A DNA stretch of 64,000 nt from Gammaproteobacteria bacterium (GCA_965225625.1 CBDDBH010000025.1:96152-160151), one strand, 5' to 3'; positions 2,237 through 52,884 are shown, numbered from the stretch's first letter. Program-made: numbers and translations. The notes: generated by a model not told the origin, from the sequence alone.

Positions 2237-2366
2237 ATAAAAATCAATACGTTAGTGAATTATCTGACCCGTTGTAAACAGGCATCAAAAATTGACCCAC
2301 CATTGGCATCGAATATTGACCCACCAATAATGGGTAAAAAGCTCAGTTTCAGCGAAGGAAGCATCG

Positions 2367-3072
2367 TTGAAAGTGGGTCATTTTTCGACGCCTATCACAC
2401 CTCTAAGTGGGGCATTTTTGCATGCCGATTTACACGGATCTGCCGGTACCGAATCTTGGACCAATGTGGGGTTCGCGATGGTGCCGGAAAACAACGGCAG
2501 TACAGCGGTCGGTCCCATAGTATTCAGCGGCGCCTATTGCAGCGCTAATACATCGATAGCGGATCATCACAACCGCTTTATCGTCGGTACGGTCTGGAAT
2601 GATTTGAACGGCGACGGTGATTACGATGCAAACGAGGGTTTGAACAACGTCACGGTTATGCCCGATTCGGGTACCTAATTTTACGCAGACCGGAAACGCG
2701 GGTGGCTTTGCCATTCCGATCGCGGCGGCGGGAACCTATACGCTGACTTTTTCCGGCACGGCGCTGGGAGCTGGCACCTTGCAACGAATCGTCGAGGTGG
2801 GCACGGTCAGCGTGTTACAGGATCTGGAATTGTCCAGCGCGAACGCCGACACTGATGGCGATGGCGTTTTCGACAATGTCGATAATTGTCTGGCTATTTC
2901 AAACGCCGATCAAACCGACACAGACGGTGACGGCGAAGGTGATGCCTGCGACAGCGATGACGATAACGATGGTGTCCTCGATGAGGACGATCCGGCACCG
3001 CTAGATCCGAATGTATCGGGCGTTAATAGCATTCTTCCGATTTTGCTAGATTTTATTCTTGGCGACGAATAG
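2367..3072 (+). pseudogene. Secreted calcium-binding protein with thrombospondin type-3-like repeats (DTDGDGxxD); frameshifted
   Basis: Repeated motifs [28 protein letters not shown] and [22 protein letters not shown] occur in two different frames (2367..2678 and 2779..3072). A third frame in between reads [19 protein letters not shown]. Confidence 0.5.
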
Positions 3073-3230
3073 GATCCGTCGCCACGTCTGTGGCGAGTTC
3101 CTATGTAATCGTTATCCGTGATGTTATTCACGCAAAAGGTCACCGAATATCTATCATCAGCGCCGCGCCTCCAGTGGACCGCAACACCGGGTGTAGTATG
3201 ATCTCGGTCCCGTGAAGGTATACAGCGACA

Positions 3231-4418
3231 TTGCCCATGATTGACTATAGCACTGTGCCATATCCCATCCGCCCGGATTTCGCCGCGGCGCATAATCGCT
3301 ACTGGGAGCGCCTGGCCGGACCGGGGAGCTGGCTGACCGGTGCGCAACGCATCGAGGTTGCCCGCGAGGTCAGACACGCGTTCGATTGCGATTTCTGCCA
3401 GCGCCGCAAAGATGCGCTGTCGCCGACCCATGTCGATGGTACCCACGACAAGGTCACCAGCCTTTCCGACACAATGATCGAGATGATCCACCGGGTAGTC
3501 ACCGATTCGGGCCGTCTCACCAAGGCCTGGTTCGACGGCCTCATCGCCCAGGGTCTCAGCGAAGAGGAATACGTCGAGATACTCGGTACCGTCGTCAATC
3601 TCTTCTCCATCGACGAGTTCTGCCGCGCGCTTGCACTACCACCCAATCCATTGCCCGAACCCAAAGCTGGTGAACCCACGGGCTACCGTCCACTGACGCT
3701 GGTCAATGACGGTGCCTGGGTCAAAACGCTGCCGCATACCGTCGACGAAGGGCCGGAGTCCGATCTGTGGCCAGGTAGGACTGGTTACGTCATCCGCGCT
3801 TTGTCGCTAGTGCCGGACGAAGTTCGCTCCATGCTGGATCTGCTGGAGGTACATTACCTCAGCAACGATTACATTTTTAAAGTCAAAGGATCACCCAAGG
3901 GAACGCTAACACGGGTGCAGGCCGAGGTAGTCGCCATTCGAGTATCCGCACTCAATGGCTGTTTCTACTGAACCTCCTCACATGCGGTGATGCTCCGTGA
4001 GAGCGCCACGAGCAACGGAGAGACAGTCAACCTGCAGGGCCTGTCAGATCCGAATTGCAGCAAGCTGGACGATGTACCGTATTCCGAGGCGTTGATCGGT
4101 TTATCCGACGCGTTTCTAAGCCGTGATGCCGAAGCGTTGGCAGCCGCGCGAGATGCCCTGGAGCGCGCGATGGGGGTGGAAGCGATGATCGATGCGGCTG
4201 GGGTCGCCTCGAATTTCCAACGCATGGACCGGATTGCGGACGGCGCCGGGATCCCCTCGGACGCGCCGATGGTGATCATGGGCGAGGATATCATCGAACA
4301 GTTAAAGCTGGACGAATACGTGTCCGCTGGAAATACCCCCAAACTGTCGTGGCTGATGCGCCAGATCATGAAATTCCTGGCAGTGCCCAAGCTGCGCGAG
4401 CGCTTTTCACTCGACTAG
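3231..4418 (+). CDS. AhpD/carboxymuconolactone-decarboxylase-family protein, predicted selenoprotein (TGA at 3969..3971 read as Sec)
   Basis: ORF 3231..3971 ends ...IRVSALNGCFY-TGA. The same frame continues TSSHAVMLRESATSNGET... to 4418. Read through, the site is RVSALNGCFY[U]TSSH, which matches the AhpD/CMD signature RVSxxNGCxYCxxxH with the second Cys replaced by UGA. Confidence 0.7.
3993..4020 (+). promoter_or_regulatory. Candidate bacterial SECIS-like stem-loop just 3' of the in-frame UGA
   Basis: There is a 6-bp perfect stem, ctccgt (3993..3998) paired with acggag (4015..4020), and a G-rich loop. It starts 22 nt after the UGA. An alternative fold is ctcac (3977..3981) with gtgag (3997..4001). 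Confidence 0.35.
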
Positions 4419-4485
4419 CCGCAAGTGGCGCGCGCGTACATTCAGGAATCCTGAACCGTCGCAGACAGCTCCGCCGTCTGCCGTC

Positions 4486-6388
4486 ATGCGCGCTCACAAA
4501 CCCGCAATTTTAATCCTCGCGGCGTTGTTACCGACCGCGCTTGTAACGATGGCGCACGCCTGGACAGCCTATGGCGGAGGCGCTGGCGGCGGTCAGTATT
4601 CGCCGCTCGCGCAGCTCACAGTCGACAACGTGCAACGACTCGCGCCCGCGTGGATCTATCACACGGGTGAACTCGCCGACGGCAGTAACGGCATCGCGCC
4701 GACGACCTTCGAAGTCAATCCGATTTTCGTCAACAACGCCCTATATTTCTGTACACCCTACGGTCGGGTCGTGGCGCTGCGACCGGATACTGGCCAGGAG
4801 TTGTGGAGCTTCGATCCCGGCATCGATCGCACGACAACCATTATCGGCGCACACATCTGTCGTGGTGTCAGCTATTGGGAAGATGCACGGGCCGAACCGG
4901 CTAGCGTTTGTCGCAAGCGGGTGTTTCACGGTGTCGCAGATGGCCGCTTGATCGCGTTGGACGCTGATACCGGGCGCCGGTGTGAGGACTTCGGCCAGGC
5001 TGGAGAAGTCCGCTTGGACGCATTCGACTATCACGGCCACGGGGATGTCGGCCTGACATCGCCGCCCGCCGTCGTCAGGGATCGCGTCGTCGTGGGCGCC
5101 AGTTTTCCAAGCTACGAAAAAACCGATTCCGTAGATGGGATTGTTCGCGCATTCGATGCCCGCACAGGAGGACAGGTTTGGTCCTGGAATCCGATCCCGC
5201 CGTCGTTGAGCAGCAGCATTGGCGGCGCCAACGTGTGGGCACCGATATCCGTCGACCGTGCGCGCGGATTGGTGTTTGTGCCGACCACCAGTCCCACACC
5301 GGACATTTACGGCGTAGCGCGCGAGGAACCCGTGCCATACGCGAACGCCGTAGTCGCACTCAACGCAGACAGCGGCACCGTGCAATGGCACTTCCAGACC
5401 GTGCATCACGATTTGTTCGACTACGATCTACCGGCGCAGCCGCTGCTAGTTGAACTTCAACGCGGGAATGCGACCGTGCCTGCCGTGGTGCAGGTGACCA
5501 AGACCGGTTTTGTGTTCGTGCTGCATCGTGAGACGGGCGAACCGGTGTTCGCCCGTCGAGGAACGCCCGGTGCCGCCATCTGATTTGCCGGGTGAAGTCG
5601 CCGCCGCGACCCAACCGTTTTCAACTGAACTGGCACCGTTTGCGAGACAGGACTTCACGGCCGACGAAGCATGGGGTTTGACGTTCTGGGATCGGGGCCG
5701 TTGCCGCGCGGCCGTCGAGGCGCTGCGCAATGAAGGACTGTTCACACCGGCGAGTCTGCGAGGGAGCATGTTGATACCGAGTTCCGCCGGCGGTGCGAAC
5801 TGGGGTGCCGCTGCTTTTGATCCGCAGCGGCAGATCCTGATTGTCAACAACACCAATCTGGCGTTCTCGTCGCGCCTTATTGAACGCGAGAAATTCGATC
5901 TGGAGCTGGCGCGGCAACGCTATGCCACCGTCGGCATGATGCCCGATACCCCCTACGTCTGGATGGAAGCGCCTATCATGTCGCCCTTCGGTGTGCCCTG
6001 TACGCCGCCCCCTTGGGGGGCCATCACCGCCTACGATATGACGGCAGGTGAGATCCTCTGGCAGATTCCTTTCGGGCGTATGCCGGTCGGCCCGTTTCGC
6101 ACACCGCGGGCCTGGGGCGCACCGCACATGGGCGGCGCCATCATTACCGCCGGCGGGCTGATCTTTATTGGCGCGAGCCTGGACAGCAGGCTGCGAGCCT
6201 ACTCTTTGGCTGACGGCGAACAGGTTTGGGAAGCAGAACTCCCGGCCCCCGGCGTCGCCACGCCAATGACTTACTCGGCCGGCGAACCGGCGCGGCAGTA
6301 CGTGGTTATTGCCGCAGGCGGCCACGCAAGACTCAGCTCGCAATTATCAGACGCACTCGTCGCTTTTGCCTTGCCGGCTGCTCACTAG
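4486..6388 (+). pseudogene. PQQ-dependent dehydrogenase (quinoprotein glucose/alcohol dehydrogenase family) with signal peptide; apparent +1 frameshift near 5550
   Basis: The N-terminus has a signal peptide and W-rich propeller repeats. Two frames overlap, 4486..5583 and 5510..6388. Joining them gives ...RETGEPVF|PVEERPVPPSDLPGE, which is typical of quinoprotein dehydrogenases. A single extra nucleotide in gttcgcccgtcgagg separates the frames. Confidence 0.65.
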
Positions 6389-6410: not shown

Positions 6411-6565
6411 AGATTTTGGGGGGTCAAGTCTTGTCTTTTGCTAGTGGTATGGACGCTTTCACAGATTTTGGGGGGTCAGGTCTTGTCTTTTGCTAGGATT
6501 TTCACAGATTTTGCAGATTTTGGGGGTCAGGTCTTGTCTTTTGCTAGTGGTCTGGACGCTTTTAA
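6411..6565. repeat. Tandem direct repeats (three units of about 45-60 bp) between convergent genes
   Basis: The unit agattttgggggg-tcaggtcttgtcttttgctag-tggtctggacgcttt is repeated three times, with small indels in the middle copy. Confidence 0.85.
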
Positions 6566-8646: not shown

Positions 8647-9105
8647 ACCGACTCCCGTGAATGCGAATTACAACGGCAAACTAGCATATTGATACAGCTA
8701 TTGAACTCACCATCTCACTCCATGCTGTGACTTTGGTTATGTTCATGTTGTGTCCCCCTCCAACGCTACGTTATTCCAGCGACACGTCCAGGCGAACCAA
8801 TCATTTTGCGGTTCGGATTCAAGCACCCCGTCAACCATCTTTCATCCAGAACACCGTTTCGGTATTGACGCCAATCGGGTTCACGAAGCAGTCGGTGGTT
8901 CCACCCAGTATCCTGCACCTATTGGGACAAATCTATGCTGGTGGACGGAGCCGCAAGGAGCGGGCTGCTCGGCATTCTTCTATCTGGTCAATAGCAGAGT
9001 TTTATTAAAACCCGTTACCGCTTGAGACATACGCTTGCTCGACGAGCACGCCGGAATGTATGGCCGGTTCGTCGCCTGCGCTATATCAGTTTTAAAGTTA
9101 TTTTG

Positions 9106-10605
9106 ATGAACACGTCGCACCAAGTGCGAATGCCAACTACCAACTCGCAAGCACCGACTCGGCGTAGACACCTCAACCACGTATCGAAACACGATACAAT
9201 TCACAGGCCAGCATTCGGGGGGCATCGCTTGGCCGACTCCATCATCCAGCAGTTAGTCCACCGCAAGATGTTCCGCATCACGGCGGGGTATCTGGCGGTG
9301 GCGTGGGTGCTGTGGCAGGTGGTAGACACTACGTGCCCGACCTTTGAGTGTTCGCTGTCATTTCAGAAGTCCATATTCTGGTTTCTTGTAGCCGGATTGC
9401 CGGTCACGCTTACAGTTGCTTGGGTGCACTGGAAGACGGCCATCCTTGTCGGTGTGGGAATACTTGCCGGGATAACGGTCACTCTTCTGGTGACTCGAGC
9501 TACATCGCCTGCCCCAGAGTCTAAAACTACCGCGATTACCCCGGTGACCGAAGTTACCCAGCCTGCCCCCACACCCACCGCAACAGTTGAGGAGAAGTCC
9601 ATCGCAGTGCTGCCGTTTGTGAATATGAGTGATGACCGGGAGCAGGAGTATTTCAGTGACGGTATATCGGAGGAAATACTAAACGGTCTCGCTAAGGTAG
9701 AGACGCTGCGTGTCGCTGCGCGGACCTCGTCGTTCTTTTTCAAAGGTAAGGACGCCGATCTGGAGACAATAGCTGAGAAACTGGGTGTCGCCCATGTCCT
9801 GGAAGGTAGTGTCAGAAAGGCGGGTGATCGACTTCGTATCACGGCGCAACTAATTAAGGTCGATGACGGCTTTCACTTATGGTCCGAGTCTTACGACCGT
9901 GAACTGACGGACATCTTTGCTGTTCAGGATGAGATTGCCAATGCAGTTGTCGATGCGTTGAAGATAGAACTGGGTGTTACAGCGGGCAGTACATTGGTAG
10001 ATATCGGCACGACCAACCGCGAAGCCTACGATTGGTATTTGCGCGGCAAGGATGCATTGGTTACCGGTAGCTTAGAGGGATTCCAACGCGGCGTTGGATA
10101 CTTCAATCGCGCGATTGAGCTGGATCCCGACTATGTTGATGCTTACGCCTATCTCGCGTTCGCGCACATATTGCAACATCCGTTTACGCTCTACCAAAAA
10201 CCCTACCGAGAATTAGCACCGGACATCAAACACGCCTACTCGCGGGCCTTGGCATTGGAGCCCGCACACAGTGCGGCGCTGTGCGCTAAGGGATATGACA
10301 AGATGTTTTTAGAGTGGGACTGGTCCGAGGCGGGGAAGCTATTCCGAGCAGGGACTGGCGAGGGTAAGGTTAATGACGTTTGCCTGGGAACCTATGTCGC
10401 GTGGTATCTTCTAGCGCTCGGTCAGTACGAGGAGGCAATCGCATTACTTCGCAGCGCCGAGCGGAGCGATCCCCTGAATCTCGAGCTTAAACATCAGCTC
10501 GGCGCTTATCTTGGACAATTTGCCGGCGAGTGGGAAGAAGGGAGCAACCACCTCCGTGCAGTAATCGACGCCGTGCCCGACCACGTATTCGCGCTCACCG
10601 ATTTA
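9106..10605 (+). pseudogene. TolB-N-like/TPR-repeat membrane protein, 5' portion, interrupted by an IS630-family insertion
   Basis: It has a TM helix MFRITAGYLAVAWVLWQVV and a TolB-N-type motif IAVLPFVNMSDDREQEYFSDGISEEILNGL followed by TPR-like helices. The reading frame runs into the IS at 10606. The ORF-track start at 9022 is probably too early. Confidence 0.65.
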
Positions 10606-11706
10606 CTCAGCAGTCGCCAATATAGGCGACAGATGGAGCAAGAAAGAATGATCGAACAAGGTGGGGCATACGCTTGAGTTGGGTGAGTTGCTCCTCGATC
10701 TTCTCGCGCAGTGTTTCGCCCGCCCGCAGCGTCCGTCGCGCCGCACCCGTGCGCTTGACGTGACTCCACACCCATTCATCGGGGTTCAGGTCTGGCGCGT
10801 AACCGGGCAGAAAATGCAGGCTCAGCCGGCCATTCGTCGAAGCGACGTAGTCGCGCACGCACGCGGTCTTGTGCGCCGGCAGACTGTCGAGCACGAGATG
10901 CACCGGTTTGCGCCGGCCCCGCATGAGCTGGCGCAGCAAGGTGACAAACAAATCGGCTTTGAGCGCGCCGCTATAGGTGCAAAACCAGAACGCCCCGTTG
11001 GCGTTGACCGCCGAGGCGGCACTGAACGATTGACGCTGTCCGGGTCGGTACACGACCGGCGTCTGGCCGCGCACGCCCCAGGTCTTACCGTGCACCGTAT
11101 CAGCACGGAAGCCAGACTCATCCCAGAAAAACACCTCGCCACCGTGCTGTTTCGCTTGACGGGCGATGGCTGGGAAGGTTTCACGCTGCCAGCGTTCAAT
11201 CGCCTCGGGGTCCCGCTGATAGGCTCGCTGCAGCGGCTTGTGCGGCGTCAATCCCAGTTTCGCCAACAACTCCCCGACCGCCGTGACGCCTATCGTCACC
11301 CCGAACTTCTGCGTCACCAACTCCACGACCACCGCGCGCGTCCACAAGCCGAAGTCCAATCCATACTGTCGCGGGTCACGACCATTGATCCAGCGGAACA
11401 CCTGTCGCTCTTGCGCCGCGCTCAGGGTTCGTGGCCGCCCCGTAGCCTTCGTCGAACGCAACGCCTTGATGCCGACACCCGGCTGCAGCGCCGCTTTGAT
11501 CCATTTGTAGATGGTCGTCCGGTTGAACCCGAACGATGCGATCACCGTCGCCGGCGACTCGCCTTCGCGAACGCGCTCTATCGCCATCAAGCGAATAGCT
11601 TCCAAGGTCGAATGGTCAAGCGTGCGGCCGTCCAGTTTCATATCTGATCCGATCGGTACGCTCTCAGAAAGTTCCATCGATGTCGCCTTATTTATCGACT
11701 AGTGAG
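10606..11706 (-). mobile_element. IS630-family insertion sequence, copy 1 (1101 bp, imperfect ~27-bp terminal inverted repeats, TA target-site duplication)
   Basis: The left end reads ctcagcagtcgccaatataggcgaca. The right end, reverse-complemented, reads ctcactagtcgataaataaggcgaca. TA dinucleotides flank it at 10604..10605 and 11707..11708. It is about 99% identical to copy 2. Confidence 0.8.
10607..11677 (-). CDS. IS630-family DDE transposase
   Basis: The 356-aa protein has an N-terminal HTH, a DDE core and the IS630/Tc1-type motif YAPDLNPDEWVW. Confidence 0.85.
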   Translation of the reverse strand: MELSESVPIGSDMKLDGRTLDHSTLEAIRLMAIERVREGESPATVIASFGFNRTTIYKWIKAALQPGVGIKALRSTKATGRPRTLSAAQERQVFRWINGRDPRQYGLDFGLWTRAVVVELVTQKFGVTIGVTAVGELLAKLGLTPHKPLQRAYQRDPEAIERWQRETFPAIARQAKQHGGEVFFWDESGFRADTVHGKTWGVRGQTPVVYRPGQRQSFSAASAVNANGAFWFCTYSGALKADLFVTLLRQLMRGRRKPVHLVLDSLPAHKTACVRDYVASTNGRLSLHFLPGYAPDLNPDEWVWSHVKRTGAARRTLRAGETLREKIEEQLTQLKRMPHLVRSFFLAPSVAYIGDC

Positions 11707-11708
11707 TA

Positions 11709-12170
11709 ATTGCTATACATCTCAATTCGGGTCAACTGGAAAAAGCGGAATCGCTGCTCCGTTCGGAAAGTTTAAAAGGGCCGAACACCTATCCGTATGC
11801 CATGTGGTTGCGGGTTGTGCTTGACGTTCTCCGCGGTGATAGCGCTAAGGCGCAATCTGTCTATGATGAGGCGCGGCGCATTGGCGAGAGCAGCGTCAAC
11901 AAATCACCGGACCTGTGGCATGGCCTGGGGTTCGCAGCGGCGTCATTGGGTCATCTAGACGAAGCGATAAGCTGGTTCAACCGCGGTTTCGAGGAGGAGG
12001 CTTTGGCTAGCGTCGTGGTGCGCCCGTTCGTAACGTCGTGGTCAGCGTTTAAGCAAGGCCACGGCCCTGCCCTCATGGCCCACCCCGACTTCCAAGCGTT
12101 CCTTGCGAAAATGAATCTAGACGATGCGTCAATAGCGGCGTTGGAGGCGGCTGCAGCAGCAGGGGATTAA
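11709..12170 (+). pseudogene. TolB-N/TPR protein, 3' portion downstream of the IS630 insertion
   Basis: The frame opens immediately at the IS boundary. Removing the IS and one TA copy restores a continuous in-frame ORF ...ALTDL|IAIHLNSGQLEKAESLLRS...MWLRVVLDVL..., which continues with TPR-like sequence. Confidence 0.65.
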
Positions 12171-12192
12171 GCATCTCTGCTAGGCGAGATGG

Positions 12193-12528
12193 TTGTCGGA
12201 AGAACGCATTCTCAAAATGAAATCCGGACAAGATTACTCGCCGAATCGTAAAGCCGCTCTAATCGATAGAATTTTGAGTAGCACGGCTTATGTATGCGAG
12301 GCCCTCGACAACATGGCTTCTGATCAGCGGGACGCGTTACGTGACAACGTCGCCAAGGTAATCGCGGATCCCGGCGCTTCACTTGAGTCAGTGCTAGACG
12401 TTTATCGGATCGAGGTGCCCAGATTTGCCGCTTTGTGGCGCGACCTTGAGAATGCTCACCAAGACTCAGGGCGGTCTGCGGCAATTGAGCATATTTTGGC
12501 CGGGAACTACGGGACCAAACTGCGATGA
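12193..12528 (+). CDS. Hypothetical protein (111 aa)
   Basis: ORF only; no motif recognised. Confidence 0.3.
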   Translation: MSEERILKMKSGQDYSPNRKAALIDRILSSTAYVCEALDNMASDQRDALRDNVAKVIADPGASLESVLDVYRIEVPRFAALWRDLENAHQDSGRSAAIEHILAGNYGTKLR

Positions 12529-17222: not shown

Positions 17223-18475
<1,253 letters not shown>

Positions 18476-40329: not shown

Positions 40330-40441
40330 TTCTTCAGTACCTCGCTAAGGCGGCGTCAGTAATTGACTTTGCGCTGCGTCAATGGGCCAATAAGGCGCGG
40401 TGCAATCCCAAAGTCGTGAACACGTCATCCGATGGCGGCCG

Positions 40442-41338: not shown

Positions 41339-41350
41339 AAATTGGCGACT

Positions 41351-42649: not shown

Positions 42650-43672
42650 ATGTTGAAATGGTTGGGAATACTCCTCGGAACTCTCAGAAGCGCGCTTAGC
42701 AGCCGCCGTGAGCTGGCACTTGAGAACTTAGCGCTGCGTCAGCAGCTAGCCGCGGTCAAACACCGTCATCCAAAGCCGCGACTAACGGACACCGATCGCC
42801 TGTTCTGGGTTTTGTTGTCGCGGGTGTGGAAGTACTGGCGGAACTCACTGCACCTGGTCCAACCGGGCACCGTTGTGCGCTGGCATCGCCAAGGATTTCG
42901 CTACTATTGGCGTTGGAAGAGTCGGGGCCGGGGTCGCCCAAAGATTGAACCCGAACTGAAGGTTCTCATTCGGCAAATGTGTCGTGCCAATCCCCTGTGG
43001 GGTGCACCCCGGATCCATGGCGAGCTTTTGAAGCTAGGCATTGATGTCGCGGAGGTAACGGTGTCCAGGTACATGCTTCGTCGTCATGGGCCACCGTCTC
43101 AAAGCTGGCGAAGTTTCCTGGACAATCATTCCCGAGAGCTGATCTCGATGGATTTCTTCACCGTGCCTTCAGCAACGTTTCGAGTGCTATTCGTGTTGGT
43201 GATACTAAGCCATGAACGTCGGCGGATAATCCATTTCAATGTGACCGCGCATCCGACGGCGGTGTGGACAGCGCGACAACTGTTGGAGGCCGTCGGTGAG
43301 GGCGAAACGCCTGGGTACGTGCTCCGAGATCGTGACCGAAGTTACGGCAGACGATTCTCTCGGCAAGCCTCAGCGTTGGGTATAGAAGAAGTACTGACAG
43401 CACCCCGGTCGCCATGGCAGAACGCGTACGCGGAGCGGGTGATCGGATCTATCAGGCGAGAGGTCCTCGATCACGTCATCGTTCTTGGGGAACGGCATCT
43501 GAGACGGATGATGAAGCGATACGTTAGCTACTACAACGGCACGCGGACCCATCTATCACTGGAGAAGGATGCGCCGGAGAGGAGATCAGTGCAGCCACCG
43601 TGTGCGGGGAGGGTGGTCGAGTTACCTCGAGTGGGCGGACTGCATCATGAATACATTCGGCTGGCAGCCTAG
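42650..43672 (+). CDS. DDE transposase with an integrase (rve) core domain; IS481-family-like, family assignment tentative
   Basis: 340 aa with an N-terminal HTH (LALENLALRQQLAAVKHR), then GRPKI...LIRQM..ANPLWGAPRIHGELLKLGIDVAEVTVSRYM, a DDE/rve core with MDFFTVPS, and a C-terminal SPWQNAYAERVIGS. Confidence 0.7.
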   Translation: MLKWLGILLGTLRSALSSRRELALENLALRQQLAAVKHRHPKPRLTDTDRLFWVLLSRVWKYWRNSLHLVQPGTVVRWHRQGFRYYWRWKSRGRGRPKIEPELKVLIRQMCRANPLWGAPRIHGELLKLGIDVAEVTVSRYMLRRHGPPSQSWRSFLDNHSRELISMDFFTVPSATFRVLFVLVILSHERRRIIHFNVTAHPTAVWTARQLLEAVGEGETPGYVLRDRDRSYGRRFSRQASALGIEEVLTAPRSPWQNAYAERVIGSIRREVLDHVIVLGERHLRRMMKRYVSYYNGTRTHLSLEKDAPERRSVQPPCAGRVVELPRVGGLHHEYIRLAA

Positions 43673-43814
43673 GTCTGCTTGCGGATGAATATTGAGGAAC
43701 ACAGGTCATCTTATATTAGAGTTCCCTGCTAATTCCTCTAATTCATGGTGCCGACTTTGGTGAATGCAGCTGAAACTGGGATGAACAGAGGGTTTCAGCT
43801 GTAATAGTTCCTAT

Positions 43815-44066
43815 ACCATCGAGTCGTGTGAAAAACTGCTGCCAGAATAATAACAAGCAGGAGTAGCCGCGTTGCAATGGTTTGTCGCCGCGTGTTCAGC
43901 GTGTTTTAAATCGGGGACACAACTTACTGCTGAAATCATGTGTCTTCGCCAGCAGTTAGTTGTTCTCAAACGTCGCCAGCCGCGACCTACATCACGTCTA
44001 TCGGATGGCTGCCTAAGTCCAGACGACGTTTTTTCCCCCTTCGGCAAGCGACTAAAGGTAACCTAA
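43815..44066 (+). mobile_element. Left-end fragment of the same rve-type IS as at 37686, with a truncated transposase N-terminus (MQWFVAACSACFKSGTQL...LKRRQ)
   Basis: The first ~125 nt are near-identical to 37686..37810, then the sequence degrades. Confidence 0.55.
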
Positions 44067-44492
44067 CCTGACATATCAAGACTGCTCCAATCTGGCCAGA
44101 TTCAACTCCCAACTTGCCAAGCGTCTTCAGCAGGTTATTCAATTCCGGCAGCTTGATACCACGAACAAACTCTCTTTCCCAGGCCAGCGCATTCTCTTCA
44201 ATCTGCTCAAACGTGCGTCTGCCCTTTGCATTGATCTTCAGTTTGATGAGTCGATTATCCTGTTTGCTCTTGGTACGAGAAATCAGGCTTTTTTCAATCA
44301 AACGATCAAGCGCGCGGGTAATCGTTGCTTTATCGATGCCAGTTTTTTATGAATATCTCGGGATGAGACGTCATCCTGTTCGGACAAGATAACCAAGATG
44401 CTGAACTCGGGTTCGGAAATACCCAGATTTTCGTGCGTGGAGGCCAGAAGCCGTAGCGATCGCTCATTAATTGCCTTGAAGCGGCAAGGCAA
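43987..44492 (-). pseudogene. MarR-family transcriptional regulator; frameshifted in a T-run near 44335
   Basis: ORF 44298..44492 has the wing/HTH LSEQDDVSSRDIHKKLA. ORF 43987..44301 continues with LIEKSLISRTKSKQDNRLIKLKINAKGRRTFEQ.... The junction is at agtttttta. Confidence 0.6.
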
Positions 44493-44749
44493 AAAATTCT
44501 GGAAAACCAGTCTAGATTCTTGAGATCTCTTTGTTTGCGGTCCCGGCCAAAGTCAACTCTCCCAAAACACGAAGAAGTACCACCCGAATGCGAGGTGGCT
44601 AACCTAATATAGTAAGACAACTGCTGGATCCGCACCAGCCCGCACGTAGTCGCAGCGACACCGCGAACGCTTGCATTGACGATTTATTCGTTTATTATAA
44701 AACGTTTTATATAAAAAGATAAATTGAAAACTCGTTGAGGAAGGCACGA

Positions 44750-45139
44750 CATGAATACCAAAAACGCCAGACCAATCCGCTATCGAAGCAACCATTCAAA
44801 AGTACATCGATGGAATCGCCCAGCACAATACGGATCTGATTACGGAAGCTTTTCATTCCGACGCCATCATGAGTAGTCACCGTGGCGACCAGTTCAGCAT
44901 CGTGCCCGCCCGCGCAATCGATTGTGAATTATATGAATAACATCCCACCCATCAGCGAAACCAGCCCCGACTTCGCTGGCCGCATAGTTTCCGTTGAGCA
45001 AAAGGACACCATGGCGACCGCGGTGATCGCTGAGGACCGGCTCGAAGGGCTGAATTTTGTGACTTATTTCCACTTACATAAGGTTGATGGCACCTGGCTG
45101 ATCTCCAGTAAGGCAACCTATGGCGAACCTGCTGCGTGA
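44750..45139 (+). pseudogene. NTF2-like (SnoaL/lumazine-binding-like) small protein; frameshifted
   Basis: One frame reads AIEATIQKYIDGIAQHNTDLITEAFHSDAIMSSHRGDQFSIVPA (about 44770..44935). ORF 44882..45139 continues with IVSVEQKDTMATAVIAEDRLEGLNFVTYFHLHKVDGTWLISS. Confidence 0.45.
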
Positions 45140-45208
45140 ACTAAGGTTCGCAACGCCCAGGAAGGGAATAAAGGAGTTTCTGCAAGATCCGTCCGTGAGG
45201 AAACAGTC

Positions 45209-45742
45209 ATGAGTAACCTGGTCAAACCGACGTTCTCAGAAGAAGAGATCCGTAGCATCCGAGACGGCGTTAATGGCGTGAAGGGCACCATTCCAGCCCG
45301 TTTTTATTACGACGAGACCATTTACCAATACGAAGTGGAGCACGTACTCAAGAAAAACTGGCTGTGCGTCGGGCGCTGGGACCAGGTTGAACATCCCGGC
45401 GATTACTTCACTCTCAGAATGTGGGGCGAATCAATTGTTATCGTCCGCGACAAAGCAAACGAACTTCATGCTCTGATTAACGTGTGCCAGCATCGCTGGT
45501 CGCAAGTTGTCCATGACGGCAGTGGCAACGCCAATCTCTTTACCTGCCCGTATCACAACTGGACCTACAACTTGGACGGCAGTTTACGCGGTATGTCCGT
45601 GCAACCGGTCCCAGGGGTAGATAAGGCAACCTGTCGTATGCATAAACTCAGGATCGAAGAGTGGCAAGGATTTGTTTTCGTCAACTTCGAAAGCGATGCC
45701 AAGCCATTGGCCTGTGTGTGGCGAATTACTATTTCGCGCTAG
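45209..45742 (+). pseudogene. Rieske non-heme-iron ring-hydroxylating oxygenase alpha subunit, N-terminal Rieske domain only; truncated by an IS right-end fragment at about 45708
   Basis: The Rieske motif is CQHRW...CPYHNW. The last residues ...ACVWRITISR* are encoded by the repeat also found at 38018 (CVWRIAILR*). No catalytic domain follows. Confidence 0.65.
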
Positions 45743-46151
45743 CTAGAGCTTGTCCATGGGAAGGAATTTGCAACTGGTTGCAAAAAAGAGGGCTCCTCAG
45801 ACCTTCTTGAACACGGTGTTTAAACGAAACGTTGCACAGCAACATGCCGGCGTTACGGCGCTGCGTTTACGTCTCGTCTGTTGCTGAGCAACACATCGCC
45901 TTCGCCCGGTATGGAGCTTGTCCGTTAAAGTGGCTTTCTAGCCACCAGATCGATCAGCGCAGACATTCCCGAATGACCGAACCCTTCATCGATGCTGTCA
46001 TCGTGACTTTGCAAATGTTCGATATCAAAATCCGAGAACGTCTGCTGGAGAAAATCTTCTGTGTACATGTTATCCCTATCGGGTGGGCCACCAGTGCCAT
46101 ATTCGATTTGCTCCGGGCCGATAACCTTGCAAGACGAATAGTCCACTGGGC

Positions 46152-46550
46152 TTAAGGGCGTTTTGCAGGTTTTCGAATAGCCCCCCCGCGTTGATCTGGC
46201 GCGGCAAATTGAATGAAAATCGCAACGATGGCGTCATATGACCTCGCTGCGAATTCGTGGGTAAAGAGGTCGACTTGTTCGGTCTTGATCTTCACCCCCC
46301 GCTTGGCCGCAAGTTTTTCCGCCTTCTCTAGCGCCACGTCGGAGAAATCCACCGCATGGACGCCGGTACCTAGGCTGGCGAGAAAAGTCCCGTTACGACC
46401 TTCCCCATCGGCAACGGCCAGCACTTTTTGCCCGGCCGAAAACAACGCGGCCTGAGATTTTAGAAAGCTATTTGGCTCGGTTCCAAATAGATAGCCTTCC
46501 TTCCCAAACCGCTTGTTCCAAAAAGTCTGCTCTTGGTTTTCTTGGTTCAT
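46152..46550 (-). CDS. Class I SAM-dependent methyltransferase (small, TehB-like); C-terminus may be truncated
   Basis: VLAVADGEGRNGTFLASLGTGVHAVDFS is a SAM-binding motif I-like segment. Confidence 0.5.
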   Translation of the reverse strand: MNQENQEQTFWNKRFGKEGYLFGTEPNSFLKSQAALFSAGQKVLAVADGEGRNGTFLASLGTGVHAVDFSDVALEKAEKLAAKRGVKIKTEQVDLFTHEFAARSYDAIVAIFIQFAAPDQRGGAIRKPAKRP

Positions 46551-46839
46551 TATTCAAAGCCCACATGCTCTGGTTGGGTAAATACATTTGGCAGCACGAA
46601 TCACACGTGTTCGAGAGGTGATTGGGACCGCCTTAAGGGCGGCATTTCAATTATGTTGGATTCGAGCGACTGAGAGTATCGCTGCATCGCCAAATTCGGC
46701 TATTTGCCGCTTTTTGGCACCCCCGGGTCGCCATTGCCCGGCTAATGACGTTCACTCAAATCATTGAAGAGGACCGAAATTGGTCACCCAATGGGGACCA
46801 ATTAAGATCTCTGCGGACAATTTTTTCCGACCTAGGGTT

Positions 46840-47106
46840 TCAGCTGACATTGCGGTCTCTGCAGCGCACGATTATCAGCGTATCATCGCGGACGCTGTAG
46901 ACTAAGGAATGCTCCCGCGACATCGGCCGAGACCAAAGCCCGTCATACGTAGACGGATGGCGATCGCAGGTGAGGCCAAGAAACGGCTCGCGCATAATGC
47001 TGTCGATCGTGTCCTCGATGCTATCTAACTGGTGCATGTTGGCGTTCTGCCAATAACGGTAATCGTCGCGAGCAGCCGGCTCGAAAATAATCCGTGAGAA
47101 CTTCAC
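46840..47106 (-). CDS. yoeB: YoeB/Txe-family toxin (type II TA ribonuclease)
   Basis: VKFSRIIFEPAARDDYRYWQ ... GLWSRPMSREHSLVYSVRDDTLIIVRCR aligns with E. coli YoeB (MKLIWSEESWDDYLYWQ...GFWSRRITEEHRLVYAVTDDSLLIAACR). A GTG start is assumed. Confidence 0.7.
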   Translation of the reverse strand: MKFSRIIFEPAARDDYRYWQNANMHQLDSIEDTIDSIMREPFLGLTCDRHPSTYDGLWSRPMSREHSLVYSVRDDTLIIVRCRDRNVS

Positions 47107-47134
47107 GCTCGCCAGCGCGGGGCCGCCAGTTGAG

Positions 47135-47758
47135 CTACGCAACGGAGTAATCTCGCGCTACCAGACACGCTGTCATGGCCCGGCGATAGTCAAACGGGCT
47201 CGCATCCGCAGCAGTGGATTTGGGAACGCTCGGGTCGAAACCACTTTTGCGAGCCGCCCAGGTGTGGCATTCGAAGCGGTCTTTGGACTGTTGATCCTCG
47301 TCTTGCTCATCCTTCGGATAAATGAACACGTTGTAGTCAACATTGGCGACGGCCAAGTCGGAGGGCGGGGGCAAAGTCGGACCGGCAACGACCACGTATC
47401 CCCCAGCGGAGGACTCCCATGCGTAATAAGTATTATTCACGAGGTAGTACGGGCGATGACGTATGTGCACGACGTGATGGCGAGGCGGCAGTGCACGTAT
47501 CATTGCACCAATGGGCGCGGCAACGGCGACGTAACTGCCGCTACTCTCGTTGTAGAACACGCCGCTGGCGTAAAAATACGCAAAGCTACCCACCGTGATA
47601 CGCACGTGCCCGCCGGGCAGTCTGTTTAACCGGTGTCCGGGCGCGTGGAAACGACTAGCCTTGCTGTCGTGCTTGCGATGGCTGCGAGGCGGATCGGCCA
47701 AGGCCGGTACAGCGAGTACTGTGATAATGACCGTTGTAAGGAATATTTTAATCTTCAT
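47135..47758 (-). CDS. Secreted hypothetical protein with a signal peptide
   Basis: The N-terminus MKIKIFLTTVIITVLAVPALA is a signal peptide. No motif recognised. Confidence 0.4.
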   Translation of the reverse strand: MKIKIFLTTVIITVLAVPALADPPRSHRKHDSKASRFHAPGHRLNRLPGGHVRITVGSFAYFYASGVFYNESSGSYVAVAAPIGAMIRALPPRHHVVHIRHRPYYLVNNTYYAWESSAGGYVVVAGPTLPPPSDLAVANVDYNVFIYPKDEQDEDQQSKDRFECHTWAARKSGFDPSVPKSTAADASPFDYRRAMTACLVARDYSVA

Positions 47759-48232
47759 TTCCATTCTCACTTCCGTTGATCTAGCGGTGTCTCACGCTAC
47801 GCAGAAACCTGTGCTCCCTATTGGCGTTGTCTGAATCGACTAGTAACCATGTTTCACCCGGCTCCTTGATTCACGCGCATCGCAGAACAAAGGGGGCCAA
47901 ATTCACCGTAGGGGTGGGGGGACACGGAGGGTTGGTGAATTTGGCCCCTGCTAAACGCCAAATGGCTAATATGATCTCTTGCGTGGATTCGATGAACATG
48001 ACGCTCTAAAACGAGTGCATGTGACTTCCGTTGACAGGCAGGAGGGGTGATTTTTGTCACGAAGTGTAAATGATGCCGCGGGGCGACTTCCGGAAACCCG
48101 TTGTGTAGGTCTGGTTCTACCCCGACATGAGGTGGCCTAGGTCGTCCATGGTCATGATGTCAGCGTATGCGCTCGTTACCGCAATCATCGTGGCGATCAG
48201 GATTGTCCTGACCGCCGTCGTGGCCGCGACTG

Positions 48233-49474
48233 TCATATCTCGCCCGAGCGATCGTGGTGCTCGTCCTTGATGTAGCAAACGCAGGTGAGCGCGACGGCCG
48301 CCAGGCATGCAAAGATTAGAAACATCAGGTCGTAGCTTCCCGTGCGATCGTAAATTTCGCCACCCACGTAGGTCCAAAGACCACCTGCCAGATGGTGAAA
48401 GGTCATGACAAAACCCATGGTAACGCCAATGTGTGTGAGACCGTAAAGCTTGCCGAGCAGCGTGGGCGTGATCGGAGCCGTAATGAGAAAGGTAATACCG
48501 AATCCAACCGCGAAGACATAAAACGCTACGCTCGAGTGCCAGTTCAAGATCAAAACGAACAGGAGCAAACGCACGGCGAAGGCGAACGCCATCGGGATCT
48601 TGTTACCGATGACGTCCGCGACCGGGCCCGCGAGCAGGAGACCCGCGAGGCTCGTCAAGCCAAACAACGCGAGCATACGTCCAGCCATAGTCGGCGTCAT
48701 GCCGTTATCAGTGACCAACGGGACGAAATGTGTCATGACGGCGAAATCCGCGCCGCCGCAGATGATCATGGACACGAGGAAGAGCCAGTACGAACGCGTC
48801 CGCAGCGCGTGCCCGATCGAAACATCCCCGCTGGATGGGGCCGCGATCGGCTCACCGGTACGCGATTCCGTGTCGCTGCCGTATGCCTGCAACCCCATGT
48901 CTCCCGGTTCGCGGATCACGAGGAACCCGAGGGCTGTGATCACCACGAACATCATCGCGGCGACCGTGAGGTAGGCCGTCCGCCAGTCGTATTCCACAGT
49001 GATGCTGGTCAGCAGCGGTACCAGGACAAACTGACCTATGGAGGCGCCTGAGATGGTCAAGCTGGCCGCCATGCCACGGCGTTTGACGAACCATTTGGCG
49101 ATGATTGCCGATATCAACGGTACCGAGGTCCCGCCGATACCGAGCGCCACGATCACTCCGTAGGAAATGTAAAGCTGCCACAGCGCGGACACGTTTGCGG
49201 TCAGCGAGTAGCCGAGGGTGAGGAGCAGGGCGCCGATGGTGAGGATCGGCCTTGGTCCGATGCGGTCGTAAAGGCGTCCGATGAACACCATTGATGTTGC
49301 CAGCACGGTCATGTTCAGAAAATAGACGGATGAGATCGCGCCACGATCCCAGCCGAACTCGGCCGCCATGGGCTTAAGCATCACCCCGAACGAAAGATGC
49401 GTGCCAGTGCTCAGGAACAGAACGACGAACGCCGCCGCCAATACGTACCAGCCGTAGAATATCCTGGCTTTCAT
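48233..49474 (-). CDS. MFS transporter (oxalate/formate antiporter-like)
   Basis: 413 aa with 12 predicted TM helices. Confidence 0.7.
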   Translation of the reverse strand: MKARIFYGWYVLAAAFVVLFLSTGTHLSFGVMLKPMAAEFGWDRGAISSVYFLNMTVLATSMVFIGRLYDRIGPRPILTIGALLLTLGYSLTANVSALWQLYISYGVIVALGIGGTSVPLISAIIAKWFVKRRGMAASLTISGASIGQFVLVPLLTSITVEYDWRTAYLTVAAMMFVVITALGFLVIREPGDMGLQAYGSDTESRTGEPIAAPSSGDVSIGHALRTRSYWLFLVSMIICGGADFAVMTHFVPLVTDNGMTPTMAGRMLALFGLTSLAGLLLAGPVADVIGNKIPMAFAFAVRLLLFVLILNWHSSVAFYVFAVGFGITFLITAPITPTLLGKLYGLTHIGVTMGFVMTFHHLAGGLWTYVGGEIYDRTGSYDLMFLIFACLAAVALTCVCYIKDEHHDRSGEI

Positions 49475-49561
49475 TTCGGGCGCGTTTTTAAAGATCCATG
49501 TGTAAAAAAGGTGTCAGATCACTGCTCTGCGCGTACTGCGATTTCCTGATCCTCTATTGAA

Positions 49562-50695
49562 CTATTCCGATTTCAGCCGACTATCGAGCAGCCATTGAGA
49601 CGCCCGCGTATTTTCACTCCGTCCCGCCCTGCGGTAGGCATCAAAATCTACGGTTTCCGGATAGGTTTCGTCGTTTGCCACCACCATACGTACCCGAATG
49701 TCGTCAGGTGTGACATTAAAGACGACCCCGTCACGCGCCAACACCAGCGGCCCGCTATAAGTAGAACGGATATCGTCGTAAACCAATGGGACGCTTTGTA
49801 GGTCATAGAAAAAATGAAAGGCGACCGCCATTCGTGGTTTAACAAGGCTGAACATACGACCAGCTGCCGCCGGCTGCGTATGGATCAACGATCCGACAAT
49901 ATTCGCCAACTTTTCATCCCAGCCCCATACATCGATCATGCGCTGCACGGTGTCAATCGATTCGTGGAGCAGTAAATCGACGTTACGGGCATTTTCGAGC
50001 ATGAATTTTGTCTGAGTGGTGTCTCCCGAGAAAACGAAACTCAATTCGTTCCAATCGAGCCGGTAACTCACCGGACCGTCCGGCCCGTGTAACGCCGGGA
50101 AGCTGGAAATAGTAACGCCGTTTTGTTGATACACTGTTTGCGTTTTCGAATAATCGAACTCGTGGATTTCCAGCTCCGCCCCCGCCGCGGGCAACTTACC
50201 GTGCCGACTAGCCAGATCCCAGGTCCATGCGGCTTTCTGCATTTTCAGAAAATGTGCGGTACCCATTTCTGGCGTCGCTCCGGACGGACCCCATATCCTG
50301 AGAGGACGGTCCCAACGTCCGGCGAGCCACCCGCCGATCCAGATCTCCGCCAGGTCGCCTGCATGGTCGGAATGCAGGTGAGACAGAAACACTTTGTCCG
50401 CATCACGGTAGGAAACCCTGAGCGGCGGGAAATTCATCTGTGAGCCCGTGCCGATATCAAAGAAGAACTTATCGCCGTTGCCCAGTTCAACAAACCATGA
50501 GGTTGAGGCTTGGGATTTACGCGGGGACGGATTTCCGGTGCCAAGTGCAACTACCCGCATCTCGTCCTCTGCGAGTGTTTCCGTGCCGGGGTAGTAATCT
50601 GTACGGTGGTAGTTAGCAAATGACTCCTGGGCTGAGATGTTTAGGCTAAACAAAGCAAAAAACGTCGAACTCGCGAACAACAATGTGGTCTTCAT
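49562..50695 (-). CDS. MBL-fold metallo-hydrolase, secreted
   Basis: It has a signal peptide and the HxHxDH motif LSHLHSDHAGD. Confidence 0.7.
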   Translation of the reverse strand: MKTTLLFASSTFFALFSLNISAQESFANYHRTDYYPGTETLAEDEMRVVALGTGNPSPRKSQASTSWFVELGNGDKFFFDIGTGSQMNFPPLRVSYRDADKVFLSHLHSDHAGDLAEIWIGGWLAGRWDRPLRIWGPSGATPEMGTAHFLKMQKAAWTWDLASRHGKLPAAGAELEIHEFDYSKTQTVYQQNGVTISSFPALHGPDGPVSYRLDWNELSFVFSGDTTQTKFMLENARNVDLLLHESIDTVQRMIDVWGWDEKLANIVGSLIHTQPAAAGRMFSLVKPRMAVAFHFFYDLQSVPLVYDDIRSTYSGPLVLARDGVVFNVTPDDIRVRMVVANDETYPETVDFDAYRRAGRSENTRASQWLLDSRLKSE

Positions 50696-50844
50696 GTTTC
50701 GCTCACTCCATAAATACATTTGCGGGATCACTCACGTTGTTACTTCCGTGCATCTGAATTCTGCGCGGAGCCGAAACTGTCGACGCCAAGGGCGCTCTTT
50801 CGACTCCAATGCCGGCGGCAGCGATAATAGCAAGAATCGATTTA

Positions 50845-51945
50845 CTCAGCAGTCGCCAATATAGGCGACAGATGGAGCAAGAAAGAATGATCGAACAAGG
50901 TGGGGCATACGCTTGAGTTGGGCTAGTTGCTCCTCGATCTTCTCGCGCAGTGTTTCGCCCGCCCGCAGCGTCCGTCGCGCCGCACCAGTGCGCTTGACGT
51001 GACTCCACACCCATTCATCGGGGTTCAGGTCTGGCGCGTAACCGGGCAGAAAATGCAGGCTCAGCCGGCCATTCGTCGAAGCGACGTAGTCGCGCACGCG
51101 CGCGGTCTTGTGCGCCGGCAGACTGTCGAGCACGAGATGCACCGGCTTGCGCCGGCCCCGCATGAGCTGGCGCAGCAAGGTGACAAACAAAGCGGCTTTG
51201 AGCGCGCCGCTATAGGTGCAAAACCAGAACGCCCCGTTGGCGTTGACCGCCGAGGCGGCACTGAACGATTGACGCTGTCCGGGTCGGTACACGACCGGCG
51301 TCTGGCCGCGCACGCCCCAGGTCTTACCGTGCACCGTATCAGCACGGAAGCCAGACTCATCCCAGAAAAACACCTCGCCACCGTGCTGTTTCGCTTGACG
51401 GGCGATGGCTGGGAAGGTTTCACGCTGCCAGCGTTCAATCGCCTCGGGGTCCCGCTGATAGGCTCGCTGCAGCGGCTTGTGCGGCGTCAATCCCAGTTTC
51501 GCCAACAACTCCCCGACCGCCGTGACGCCTATCGTCACCCCGAACTTCTGCGTCACCAACTCCACGACCACCGCGCGCGTCCACAAGCCGAAGTCCAATC
51601 CATACTGTCGCGGGTCACGACCATTGACCCAGCGGAACACCTGTCGCTCTTGCGCCGCGCTCAGGGTTCGTGGCCGCCCCGTAGCCTTCGTCGAACGCAA
51701 CGCCTTGATGCCGACACCCGGCTGCAGCGCCGCTTTGATCCATTTGTAGATGGTCGTCCGGTTGAACCCGAACGATGCGATCACCGTCGCCGGCGACTCG
51801 CCTTCGCGAACGCGCTCTATCGCCATCAAGCGAATAGCTTCCAAGGTCGAATGGTCAAGCGTGCGGCCGTCCAGTTTCATATCTGATCCGATCGGTACGC
51901 TCTCAGAAAGTTCCATCGATGTCGCCTTATTTATCGACTAGTGAG
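50845..51945 (-). mobile_element. IS630-family insertion sequence, copy 2 (TA target duplication at 50843..50844 and 51946..51947)
   Basis: Its ends are near-identical to copy 1. Its transposase differs at about 4 residues. Confidence 0.8.
50846..51916 (-). CDS. IS630-family DDE transposase
   Basis: 356 aa, about 99% identical to the 10607..11677 copy. Confidence 0.85.
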   Translation of the reverse strand: MELSESVPIGSDMKLDGRTLDHSTLEAIRLMAIERVREGESPATVIASFGFNRTTIYKWIKAALQPGVGIKALRSTKATGRPRTLSAAQERQVFRWVNGRDPRQYGLDFGLWTRAVVVELVTQKFGVTIGVTAVGELLAKLGLTPHKPLQRAYQRDPEAIERWQRETFPAIARQAKQHGGEVFFWDESGFRADTVHGKTWGVRGQTPVVYRPGQRQSFSAASAVNANGAFWFCTYSGALKAALFVTLLRQLMRGRRKPVHLVLDSLPAHKTARVRDYVASTNGRLSLHFLPGYAPDLNPDEWVWSHVKRTGAARRTLRAGETLREKIEEQLAQLKRMPHLVRSFFLAPSVAYIGDC

Positions 51946-52089
51946 TAAACGACGTTTCCTGTTTCATGTATAGCGAGTGCCCTTGTTGAAATATCTGCTT
52001 GTAATGCCATGAACATCTAGTCCGATCCTTGACAATTGCAACATCGAGATTTGTTCCGAGCGCCGGTCAAATAGAGTAAAGGAGGTCTT

Positions 52090-52470
52090 ATGTCGGAATC
52101 TTCAAATGACGCAGGATTACTCAACCATCTATCCTGGTGGGGCGTTCCGACTTTTTTTCGATGCGAGCACGATCCAGCGCTATCCGATCTGGAAATCCGT
52201 CTTGTAGGTATCCCTCACAGCAGCGGTAATGGGTCCACCGAACGGGACCAGCATCTTGGACCAAGGGCTGTACGGCTGACGTCAACTGGCTATCGACGTC
52301 TACACCGGGAATTCAGGATTTCTCCCTAGGACACCTGCCGCATCCGTGATCCGGGTGATGTTCCTTTGCCGCGTGCAATGGTCAATGAAGCATGTATAAG
52401 CGATATTGAAACGTACTATCGTGAATTAGCGAACGCTGGTATACGACCGGTTGCTGTAGGGCCGTAGATT
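52090..52470 (+). pseudogene. Agmatinase/arginase-family gene remnant (N-terminal ~125 codons spread over two frames)
   Basis: WWGVPTFFRCEHDP...DLEIRLVGIPHSSGNGSTERDQHLGPRAVR is followed, after a frame change, by IRDPGDVPLPRAMVNEACISDIETYYRELANAGIRPVAVGP*. Confidence 0.5.
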
Positions 52471-52884
52471 TATAGATATGAAAGGCTAACAACGCCGACC
52501 GAACTCAATATTAGAACTCGGCTCAACAGATTGTATTGTTCACGCAAGTAGACTTCGTTACCACCCATCCCGCATTTATCAAACGTACCGTGCTCGGCGC
52601 AGTTTTCCTTGCGTATAAACTACGAAGTAATTGGGACACCATATCCAGCGGACTCAAAACTTAGAAATTCCGGTATTTGGATAGTAGTGTTACCTGTGAA
52701 TTTCGCTGGGGATCCAAGTTATCTATTAGTTACGGATTTGTTCGCCAGCGGATAATGAAGTCGGTATGCTATCTCCTGGGTTCCCCGCGCCCGCGCAAGT
52801 ATGTGATCAGCCCACAGTCAAAGCATTTCTAAACCGGCCGCGCCAGAACGCACTCATGTGACGTTCCCAGGAGGTGTCTAGCAG

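Follow-up and report, generated by a model that had tools for sequence, protein, structure and literature searches.

A lesion-rich region beside a tRNA-Met gene of an uncultured gammaproteobacterium: probably an ordinary accessory region with old scars, strain variation and assembly errors

The closest described counterparts of the DNA considered here, positions 2237-52884 of a 64-kb stretch from an uncultured gammaproteobacterium (the whole stretch is hereafter called the window), are of two biological kinds and one technical kind. Genomic islands integrated at tRNA genes combine an integrase with a repeat of the attachment site (att), whereas genome-plasticity regions rich in insertion sequences (IS) accumulate intact elements, element remnants and damaged genes. 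The technical counterpart is a class of assembly error: the errors left in long-read assemblies mostly concern the length of homopolymers and survive in the vicinity of repeats (PMC8812927), and they falsely pseudogenise genes (PMC12007338).

Like tRNA-integrated islands, the region starts directly 3' of a tRNA gene, at the point where the synteny of relatives stops. Unlike them, it is associated in the window with no recombinase gene, no repeat of the tRNA 3' end and no composition step, and all near-identical strains share the sequence adjacent to the tRNA gene. The likeness to IS-rich genome-plasticity regions goes further, as the region carries four intact IS and four IS remnants in 50 kb with gene remnants adjoining them, insertions that vary between 99.9%-identical strains, a difference of arrangement bounded by IS110 and a patchy GC content. 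It differs from such regions in that its genes are mostly catabolic and transport genes without a recognisable cargo module. Taken as a whole, the region is probably (with a probability of about 0.65) an ordinary IS-rich accessory region, whose disrupted genes combine old scars, strain variation and assembly errors.

These lesions can be viewed as three layers. The first is made of old lesions linked to mobile elements and fixed in the population, i.e. those of the TSP3 gene, of the TPR gene cut by an IS630 element, of the Rieske oxygenase and ureohydrolase genes and of the IS91, IS6 and rve-type elements; all of them are present in every near-identical assembly. The second layer is structural variation at the strain level. 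Such variation is observed directly between assemblies in the case of IS insertions; the join found at an IS110 element, a deletion in a TonB-dependent receptor gene and a duplication in an isochorismatase gene would belong to it if they are real, which is probable for the last two. The third layer would consist of homopolymer consensus errors that falsely break a MarR gene, an NTF2-like gene and a methyltransferase gene; the frameshifts of a dehydrogenase dependent on pyrroloquinoline quinone (PQQ) and of a substrate-binding protein, as well as a long poly-C tract, may also belong to it. A first-pass annotation of the window, made from its sequence, had described an unusually dense gene decay affecting at least 12 genes. 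Every lesion that it listed was found at or near the position given; several had been mis-described, and old shared IS scars together with probable consensus errors in an ordinary accessory region replace the proposed decay.

Exact-product look-ups retrieved metagenome contigs of long-read style, from three ENA samples and two Logan runs, to which the window is ~99.9% identical. The contigs used as references come from ERZ21829562 (ctg256229l, labelled L011, and ctg257166l), ERZ28669063 (several contigs, including ctg113114, labelled L012), ERZ28763709 (contig_38, labelled L010) and Logan ERR14231557 and ERR14231558 (the contig labelled L004 being from the latter). Taken together, these near-identical independent contigs cover every base of the window, so that each claimed lesion can be tested position by position within the same strain cluster. 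The 16-kb stretch 35900-52000 is present in one other assembly only (ERZ21829562) and the remainder of the window in at least two, which fits a lower-abundance accessory segment with low coverage at the cluster of indels described below. The sequence of the window itself most likely derives from a long-read (metagenome) assembly. It does not differ at all from the references over 1-5096 (three other assemblies), 23355-25568, 33000-38300, 45209-45742 and 51949-52884.

Lesions common to the near-identical assemblies

About half of the lesions listed by the first-pass annotation are old and fixed in every near-identical assembly. The first feature found 3' of the tRNA-Met gene, starting at 2367, is the remnant of a gene with TSP3 and CarboxypepD_reg repeats (2367-3072, plus strand). 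It consists of two open reading frames (ORFs) in different frames, without N-terminal signal region, and a frameshift near 2672-2680 splits one of its CarboxypepD_reg domains. As this remnant is identical in all assemblies, it is an old fixed pseudogene. The TPR gene (9022-12170, plus strand) is cut by the first of two IS630 copies (10599-11709), whose transposase is encoded by the minus strand. Excising this copy in silico restores an ORF of 678-679 amino acids (aa), and the insertion is seen in every assembly that covers the site.

Two other genes are reduced to their 5' part. The truncated gene of a Rieske oxygenase alpha subunit (45209-45742, plus strand) retains the N-terminal Rieske domain only; its 177 aa cover positions 4-159 of a 450-position profile and are identical in the reference. 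The N-terminal remnant of an agmatinase- or guanidinopropionase-like ureohydrolase (52075-52464, plus strand), interrupted by an in-frame stop at 52327-52329, is likewise identical in the reference contig. It has no match in Pfam or NCBIfam, and a search of PDB sequences aligned it with residues 17-123 of a 326-aa ureohydrolase (PDB 3nip, E=2.7e-13).

The mobile elements have left comparable scars. The IS91 transposase remnant (23448-24655, plus strand) is split over two frames, one part (23448-23963) holding Zn_Tnp_IS91 and the other (24089-24655) positions 56-181 of Y2_Tnp, and shows the same state in the reference contig. The remnant of an IS6-family transposase (33112-33471, minus strand), which the first-pass annotation had not listed, covers positions 8-119 of a 202-position profile and is the same in the reference contigs. 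The N-terminal remnant of a second rve-type transposase (37681-38043, plus strand) is 46% identical to the intact rve-type transposase located at 42650-43672, and a shorter copy of it lies at 43816-43987. Counted over the 50 kb, old remnants of non-IS genes number four, as do IS remnants and intact IS elements, and two or three structural mutations private to the window come in addition. The lesions of the TSP3 gene, of IS91, of the agmatinase-like gene, of the Rieske oxygenase and of the TPR gene had all been recognised correctly from the sequence of the window.

Single-base indels and apparently split genes

Compared with the cleanest references, the window carries 14 single-base indels (10 insertions and 4 deletions), all of which are changes in homopolymer length. 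Each of the 10 insertions lengthens a run already present, in most cases one of 2 bases that becomes one of 3, and the 4 deletions lie at runs in the reference contexts. All but one (13/14) are absent from every other near-identical assembly, the exception being an insertion at 5552 that is shared with contig_38. Furthermore, 12 of the 14 (8 insertions and 4 deletions) are grouped within the 2,483 bp of 43699-46181, a 137-fold enrichment (Bonferroni-corrected binomial P ~6e-14). Substitutions have a normal density in this cluster (1 observed vs 0.6 expected).

Three genes are hit by the cluster: the MarR gene (44083-44556, minus strand; 4 indels), the Lumazine_bd_2/NTF2-like gene (44756-45142, plus strand; 2 indels) and the methyltransferase gene (45927-46550, minus strand; 2 indels), the remaining 4 of the 12 indels being intergenic. 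In ctg257166l, the same genes are full length (157, 128 and 207 aa, respectively) and encode complete Pfam domains. The frameshifts of the first two had been noticed in the first-pass annotation and attributed each to a single slip, instead of four and two indels; the methyltransferase gene was missing from its list of broken genes.

A positive control is provided by other assemblies of the same population. Relative to L011, L012 has 8 single-base insertions and a single substitution. Six of these insertions are grouped within 2.4 kb, at another place than the cluster of the window, and they break N_methyl, guanylate cyclase and DUF3604 genes, none of which is damaged in the window or in other assemblies. 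In addition, a homopolymer deletion at 6015 is found in contig_38 only. Groups of +1 changes in homopolymers that shift place between assemblies behave as consensus errors would. By comparison, neutral pseudogene decay in bacteria is deletion-biased and is accompanied by substitutions; the cluster is unlike such decay because of its insertion bias (8:4) and of its indel-to-substitution ratio (12:1). Judged from these sequence comparisons, the 12-indel cluster is most likely a consensus error, and the MarR, NTF2-like and methyltransferase genes are very probably broken in the assembly alone. More generally, long-read consensus errors appear to account for most of the single-base frameshifts, an explanation that the first-pass annotation had itself put forward as possible and that is strengthened by their nature and clustering, by their absence from other assemblies in 13 cases of 14 and by the cluster found in the sister assembly.

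The resemblance to the long-read homopolymer errors described previously (PMC8812927, PMC12007338) is extensive: the changes are of +/-1 base in runs, private to one assembly, clustered, without accompanying substitutions and located beside repeats or IS, and the false pseudogenes are repaired by a second assembly. The differences are that two isolated insertions (5552 and 16985, see below) show hints of independent support, that the errors are deduced from assemblies and that a poly-C tract of 42 nucleotides (nt) is not a typical residual error. A mismatch-repair mutator strain was also considered, as 13 of the 15 substitutions outside IS are transitions; this candidate was rejected because a mutator would not confine its indels to 2.5 kb.

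Two genes are split by isolated insertions, as had been reported in the first-pass annotation. The gene of the PQQ-dependent dehydrogenase (4486-6388, plus strand; 633 aa when intact) is split by an additional C at 5552 (CC to CCC). This C is also found in contig_38 of ERZ28763709 and is absent from ERZ21829562 and ERZ28669063. The window and contig_38 belong to the same lineage, since they have single-nucleotide polymorphisms (SNPs) at 6850 and 9031 in common, and the frameshift is either a real allele of the strain or a systematic error shared by both assemblies. The gene of the SBP_bac_3 substrate-binding protein (16360-17092, minus strand; 243 aa when intact) carries, near its 5' end, an additional G at 16985 (GG to GGG) that is absent from three other assemblies. 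Both genes are intact in other assemblies, and either frameshift may also be a consensus error.

Another split gene has a different explanation. Gene callers divide the gene located at 3231-4418 (plus strand) into products of 244 and 142 aa in every assembly. The two ORFs (3231-3971 and 3987-4418) lie in one frame and are separated by a single TGA (3969-3971). With a cysteine placed at this codon, the whole product matches NCBIfam NF041238, i.e. the AhpD-related CFYUT selenoprotein family, over positions 1-356 of 357 (E=9.6e-135; 449 bits vs a cut-off of 175). The TGA stands exactly at the U of CFY-U-TSSH, which conforms to the CxxU-xxx-H motif. The protein is therefore full length, carries U at the expected place of the C-F-Y-U-T-x-x-H motif of the family and does not differ from it in sequence. 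As far as sequence can tell, this split gene is a known selenoprotein gene and not a pseudogene, its TGA being read as selenocysteine. A hairpin predicted 3' of the UGA is not better than those of shuffled sequence (z = -1.25), and the selenocysteine machinery (selA, selB and selD) lies outside the 64 kb of the window.

Private structural lesions and insertion sequences

Three larger lesions are private to the window. The cNMP-binding/EAL gene (17223-18475, plus strand; 405 aa when intact) contains a run of 42 C at 17958-17999, where two other assemblies have a T followed by six C (TC6). The net gain is 35 nt, which shifts the frame, and the upstream T has also been lost. The sister contig_38 ends 436 bp before this tract, and the 24-mer located on its left had no match among the JGI metagenome contigs that were scanned, which thus revealed no other allele of the tract. 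The isochorismatase gene (18399-19239, plus strand; 236 aa when intact) has undergone a clean 7-bp tandem duplication (GGCACTG, 18839-18845) next to a partial GGCA repeat. Both lesions are as the first-pass annotation had described them. In contrast, the lesion of the TonB-dependent receptor gene (30886-32745, minus strand), which it had taken for a single-nucleotide slip, is a 361-bp deletion that leaves 619 of 778 aa. The deletion junction (30887-30892) lies in unique sequence at a microhomology, AAT(T)GTG, formed by the short imperfect repeats AATTGTG and AATGTG.

Exact-product look-ups for the three truncated products (619 aa for the TonB-dependent receptor, 261 aa for the cNMP-binding protein and 158 aa for the isochorismatase) found no match, a result that another choice of start codon would also give. 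These nulls fit lesions that are private, the truncated products not being on record in other assemblies. All three lesions may be real variants of the strain or artefacts. The 7-bp duplication and the 361-bp deletion look like real mutations, whereas we lean toward an artefact for the C42 tract.

The IS of the region belong to five families: two copies of IS630, one IS110, the IS91 and IS6 remnants and an IS3/IS481-like rve element. Six element types are reached when the remnants of the second rve-type element are counted, so that the six IS families announced by the first-pass annotation are essentially right as a number of types. The second IS630 copy (50838-51948, minus strand) is ~99% identical to that inserted in the TPR gene. 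Over the first 300 nt, the identity between the two is 99%, and a comparison of each copy with the reference counterpart of the other gives 99.1-99.5%. The IS110-family element (21438-22900, plus strand) encodes a transposase at 21545-22609, and the intact rve-type transposase gene (42650-43672, plus strand) encodes an IS3/IS481-like protein that scores below both curated cut-offs. Sister contigs hold further copies of IS630 and IS110.

Insertions also distinguish the strains. In contig L001, a truncated IS630 is inserted at ~17193 of the window, upstream of the cNMP-binding/EAL gene, and in L007 an insertion of IS3 type lies at 22892-22900; both are absent from the window. Because insertion sites vary in this way between the strains, IS activity among them is real, and the data support its being ongoing. 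The IS expansion in progress suggested by the first-pass annotation holds in this modest sense, given the two near-identical IS630 copies, the clean insertion in the TPR gene and the strain-variable sites. The L001 insertion itself (12094-12993 of the contig, ~17162-17193 of the window) comprises 875 of the 1111 bp of IS630 and is flanked by a 32-bp duplication, which is unusually long for a target duplication of IS630.

The rve element and the second IS630 copy show 13 and 7 substitutions, respectively, when compared with the reference copies at these loci, vs ~2.5e-4 differences per base in the DNA that flanks them. This divergence suggests either gene conversion or a consensus built from several copies of an IS.

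The arrangement of the region around IS110 is also peculiar to the window. On the left of this element, the window corresponds to ctg256229l and, on its right, to ctg257166l; SNPs locate the crossover within 21438-21889. Past their own IS110 copies, the two ERZ21829562 contigs lead into other genes, and the join (21438-22943 of the window, to be compared with 17190-18733 of L001 and 15020-16434 of L007) was not seen in other assemblies. It results either from recombination between two IS110 copies or from a chimeric assembly path. Besides, ~370 bp located on the right of IS110 (22909-23277) recur in inverted orientation, with 95.5% identity, in the reference contig L007 (19298-19670), and 41-nt repeats (D5) are found in the window at 21898, 22902 and 23674. 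These 370-bp and 41-nt repeats may represent the end of an IS91 or a target of IS110; the D5 family was also considered as an IS110 target or guide signal and set aside, since one copy is only 63% identical.

The tRNA-Met junction, competing explanations and other features

The left edge of the variable region is marked by a tRNA-Met gene (anticodon CAT; 2160-2236, plus strand), the only tRNA gene in the window. A same-species genome was not found among 185,579 species genomes, in which the best match of the Crp protein encoded next to the tRNA gene is 77% identical. The gene order GGDEF-OsmC-Crp-tRNA-Met is nevertheless kept in many distant gammaproteobacterial genomes. In contrast, the DNA found 3' of tRNA-Met differs in each of these relatives, and the genes located downstream in the window were found in none of them. 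Because gene order is conserved up to the tRNA gene and then different in each relative, tRNA-Met is a synteny break point. All the 99.9%-identical assemblies have the same DNA beside it, and a conserved right flank was not found in the closest genomes beyond them, whose Crp proteins reach at most 77% identity.

The placement of a disrupted region downstream of a tRNA gene stands, whereas its description by the first-pass annotation as a decaying tRNA-associated island is not supported as far as a discrete island is concerned. No integrase, whether tyrosine or serine recombinase, was found among the Pfam matches of the genes called throughout the window or in the ORFs scanned in the gaps. The 3' end of the tRNA gene (20 and 25 nt) occurs only once within the 64 kb, even with up to 3 mismatches allowed; no att repeat was thus found, though an att site may lie beyond the window. 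The GC profile across the tRNA boundary, which had been proposed as a check, is patchy inside the region (0.495-0.614, vs 0.53-0.55 on the left of the tRNA gene) without a step at the tRNA gene. Since neither integrase nor att repeat was found in the window, a classic island integrated in the tRNA gene is not supported and "IS-rich plastic accessory region" is a safer description.

The reading preferred here, i.e. an ordinary accessory region with old scars, strain variation and consensus errors, has to face several observations that weigh against it. The errors are deduced from other assemblies and not from the source reads, and only one independent contig spans 35.9-52 kb, so that the case for the 12-indel cluster rests on a single comparison and on ORF integrity. 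The insertion at 5552 recurs in a second assembly (contig_38) that carries the same strain SNPs. The Logan contig L004 (ERR14231558) stops precisely at 16986, after which the GG and GGG alleles no longer coincide; a branch of the de Bruijn graph would give such an end if both alleles were present, which suggests that both occur in the reads of this run. L004 also shows a one-base homopolymer difference at 12469, indicating that such variants or errors circulate in these data. Lastly, there is no established mechanism that would produce the C42 tract as an artefact. Some of these points would suit a region in which all lesions are real, be it an island linked to tRNA-Met or an accessory region under relaxed selection, pseudogenised by slippage, rearrangement and IS. 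The start of the region at a tRNA gene where the synteny of relatives ends, the eight gene or IS remnants that are real and fixed, the two larger mutations of types rarely made by consensus errors (7-bp duplication and 361-bp deletion), the allele common to two assemblies at 5552 and that possibly present in reads at 16985 all go in this direction. However, 12 insertion-biased indels in 2.5 kb with a single substitution do not resemble neutral decay and the same signature is found elsewhere in a sister assembly, while the lack of integrase, att repeat and GC step in the window argues against the island; this explanation is thus very unlikely.

The opposite view would hold everything private to the window (C42, 7-bp duplication, 361-bp deletion and IS110 join) for assembly artefacts, leaving only the shared lesions as biological. 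It agrees with the lack of window-specific products on record in any other assembly, with an IS110 join unique to the window whose flanks both continue differently in ERZ21829562, and with IS copies that differ from the references at the same locus, as expected from a multi-copy consensus. The loss of the T upstream of C42, which is not expected from simple slippage of C6, and the end of the same-strain sister contig 436 bp before this tract point the same way. It is considered rather unlikely, as the microhomology of the deletion junction is surrounded by unique sequence, where no repeat could have collapsed, as slippage classically gives tandem duplications such as that found by the partial GGCA repeat, and as structural differences at the strain level are clear among the other assemblies. 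A real process of localised hypermutation or contingency in one strain, which would have made both the changes at 43.7-46.2 kb and the expansion from C6 to C42, could account for the extreme clustering of run-length changes and for a 42-nt homopolymer within a signalling gene. With 2-3 nt, most of the changed runs fall short of the length required for slipped-strand contingency loci; 4 of the 12 changes are intergenic, hence not aimed at genes; TC6 is stable in two other assemblies; and an equivalent cluster is found at an unrelated place in another assembly. Such a process is therefore extremely unlikely. The accessory-region reading is not surprising and opens no new question. It does call for caution, as three to five of the genes that seem to decay here are probably long-read consensus artefacts and one apparent stop is a putative selenocysteine codon: decay is overstated when the density of pseudogenes is taken directly from such assemblies. 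The remainder (old scars, strain-variable insertions and a possible IS110 recombination) is useful for the study of strain-level plasticity in this gammaproteobacterium.

Some other features of the window deserve mention. The gap (6415-6562) between the convergent PQQ dehydrogenase and DUF3604 genes is filled by a 45-nt unit repeated three times in tandem, with 78-93% identity and a spacing of 51-52 nt. A 740-aa ORF (12806-15028, plus strand) matches the reductive dehalogenase family over its C-terminal 300 aa (TIGR02486, E=1.9e-60), its first ~440 aa having no family match, and a 344-aa 4Fe-4S protein is encoded near it (20119-21156, minus strand). An AraC-family regulator with cupin and HTH_18 domains (41342-42274, plus strand) is not called in the reference contig, where a 142-aa ORF without family match is found instead on the opposite strand. 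Outside 2237-52884, the domains TCAD9, APH-like and NUDT9_N are combined in an 858-aa protein (60620-63199, plus strand), whose gene neighbours those of a GAF/PAS sensor kinase of 1987 aa and of a response-regulator/SpoIIE phosphatase.

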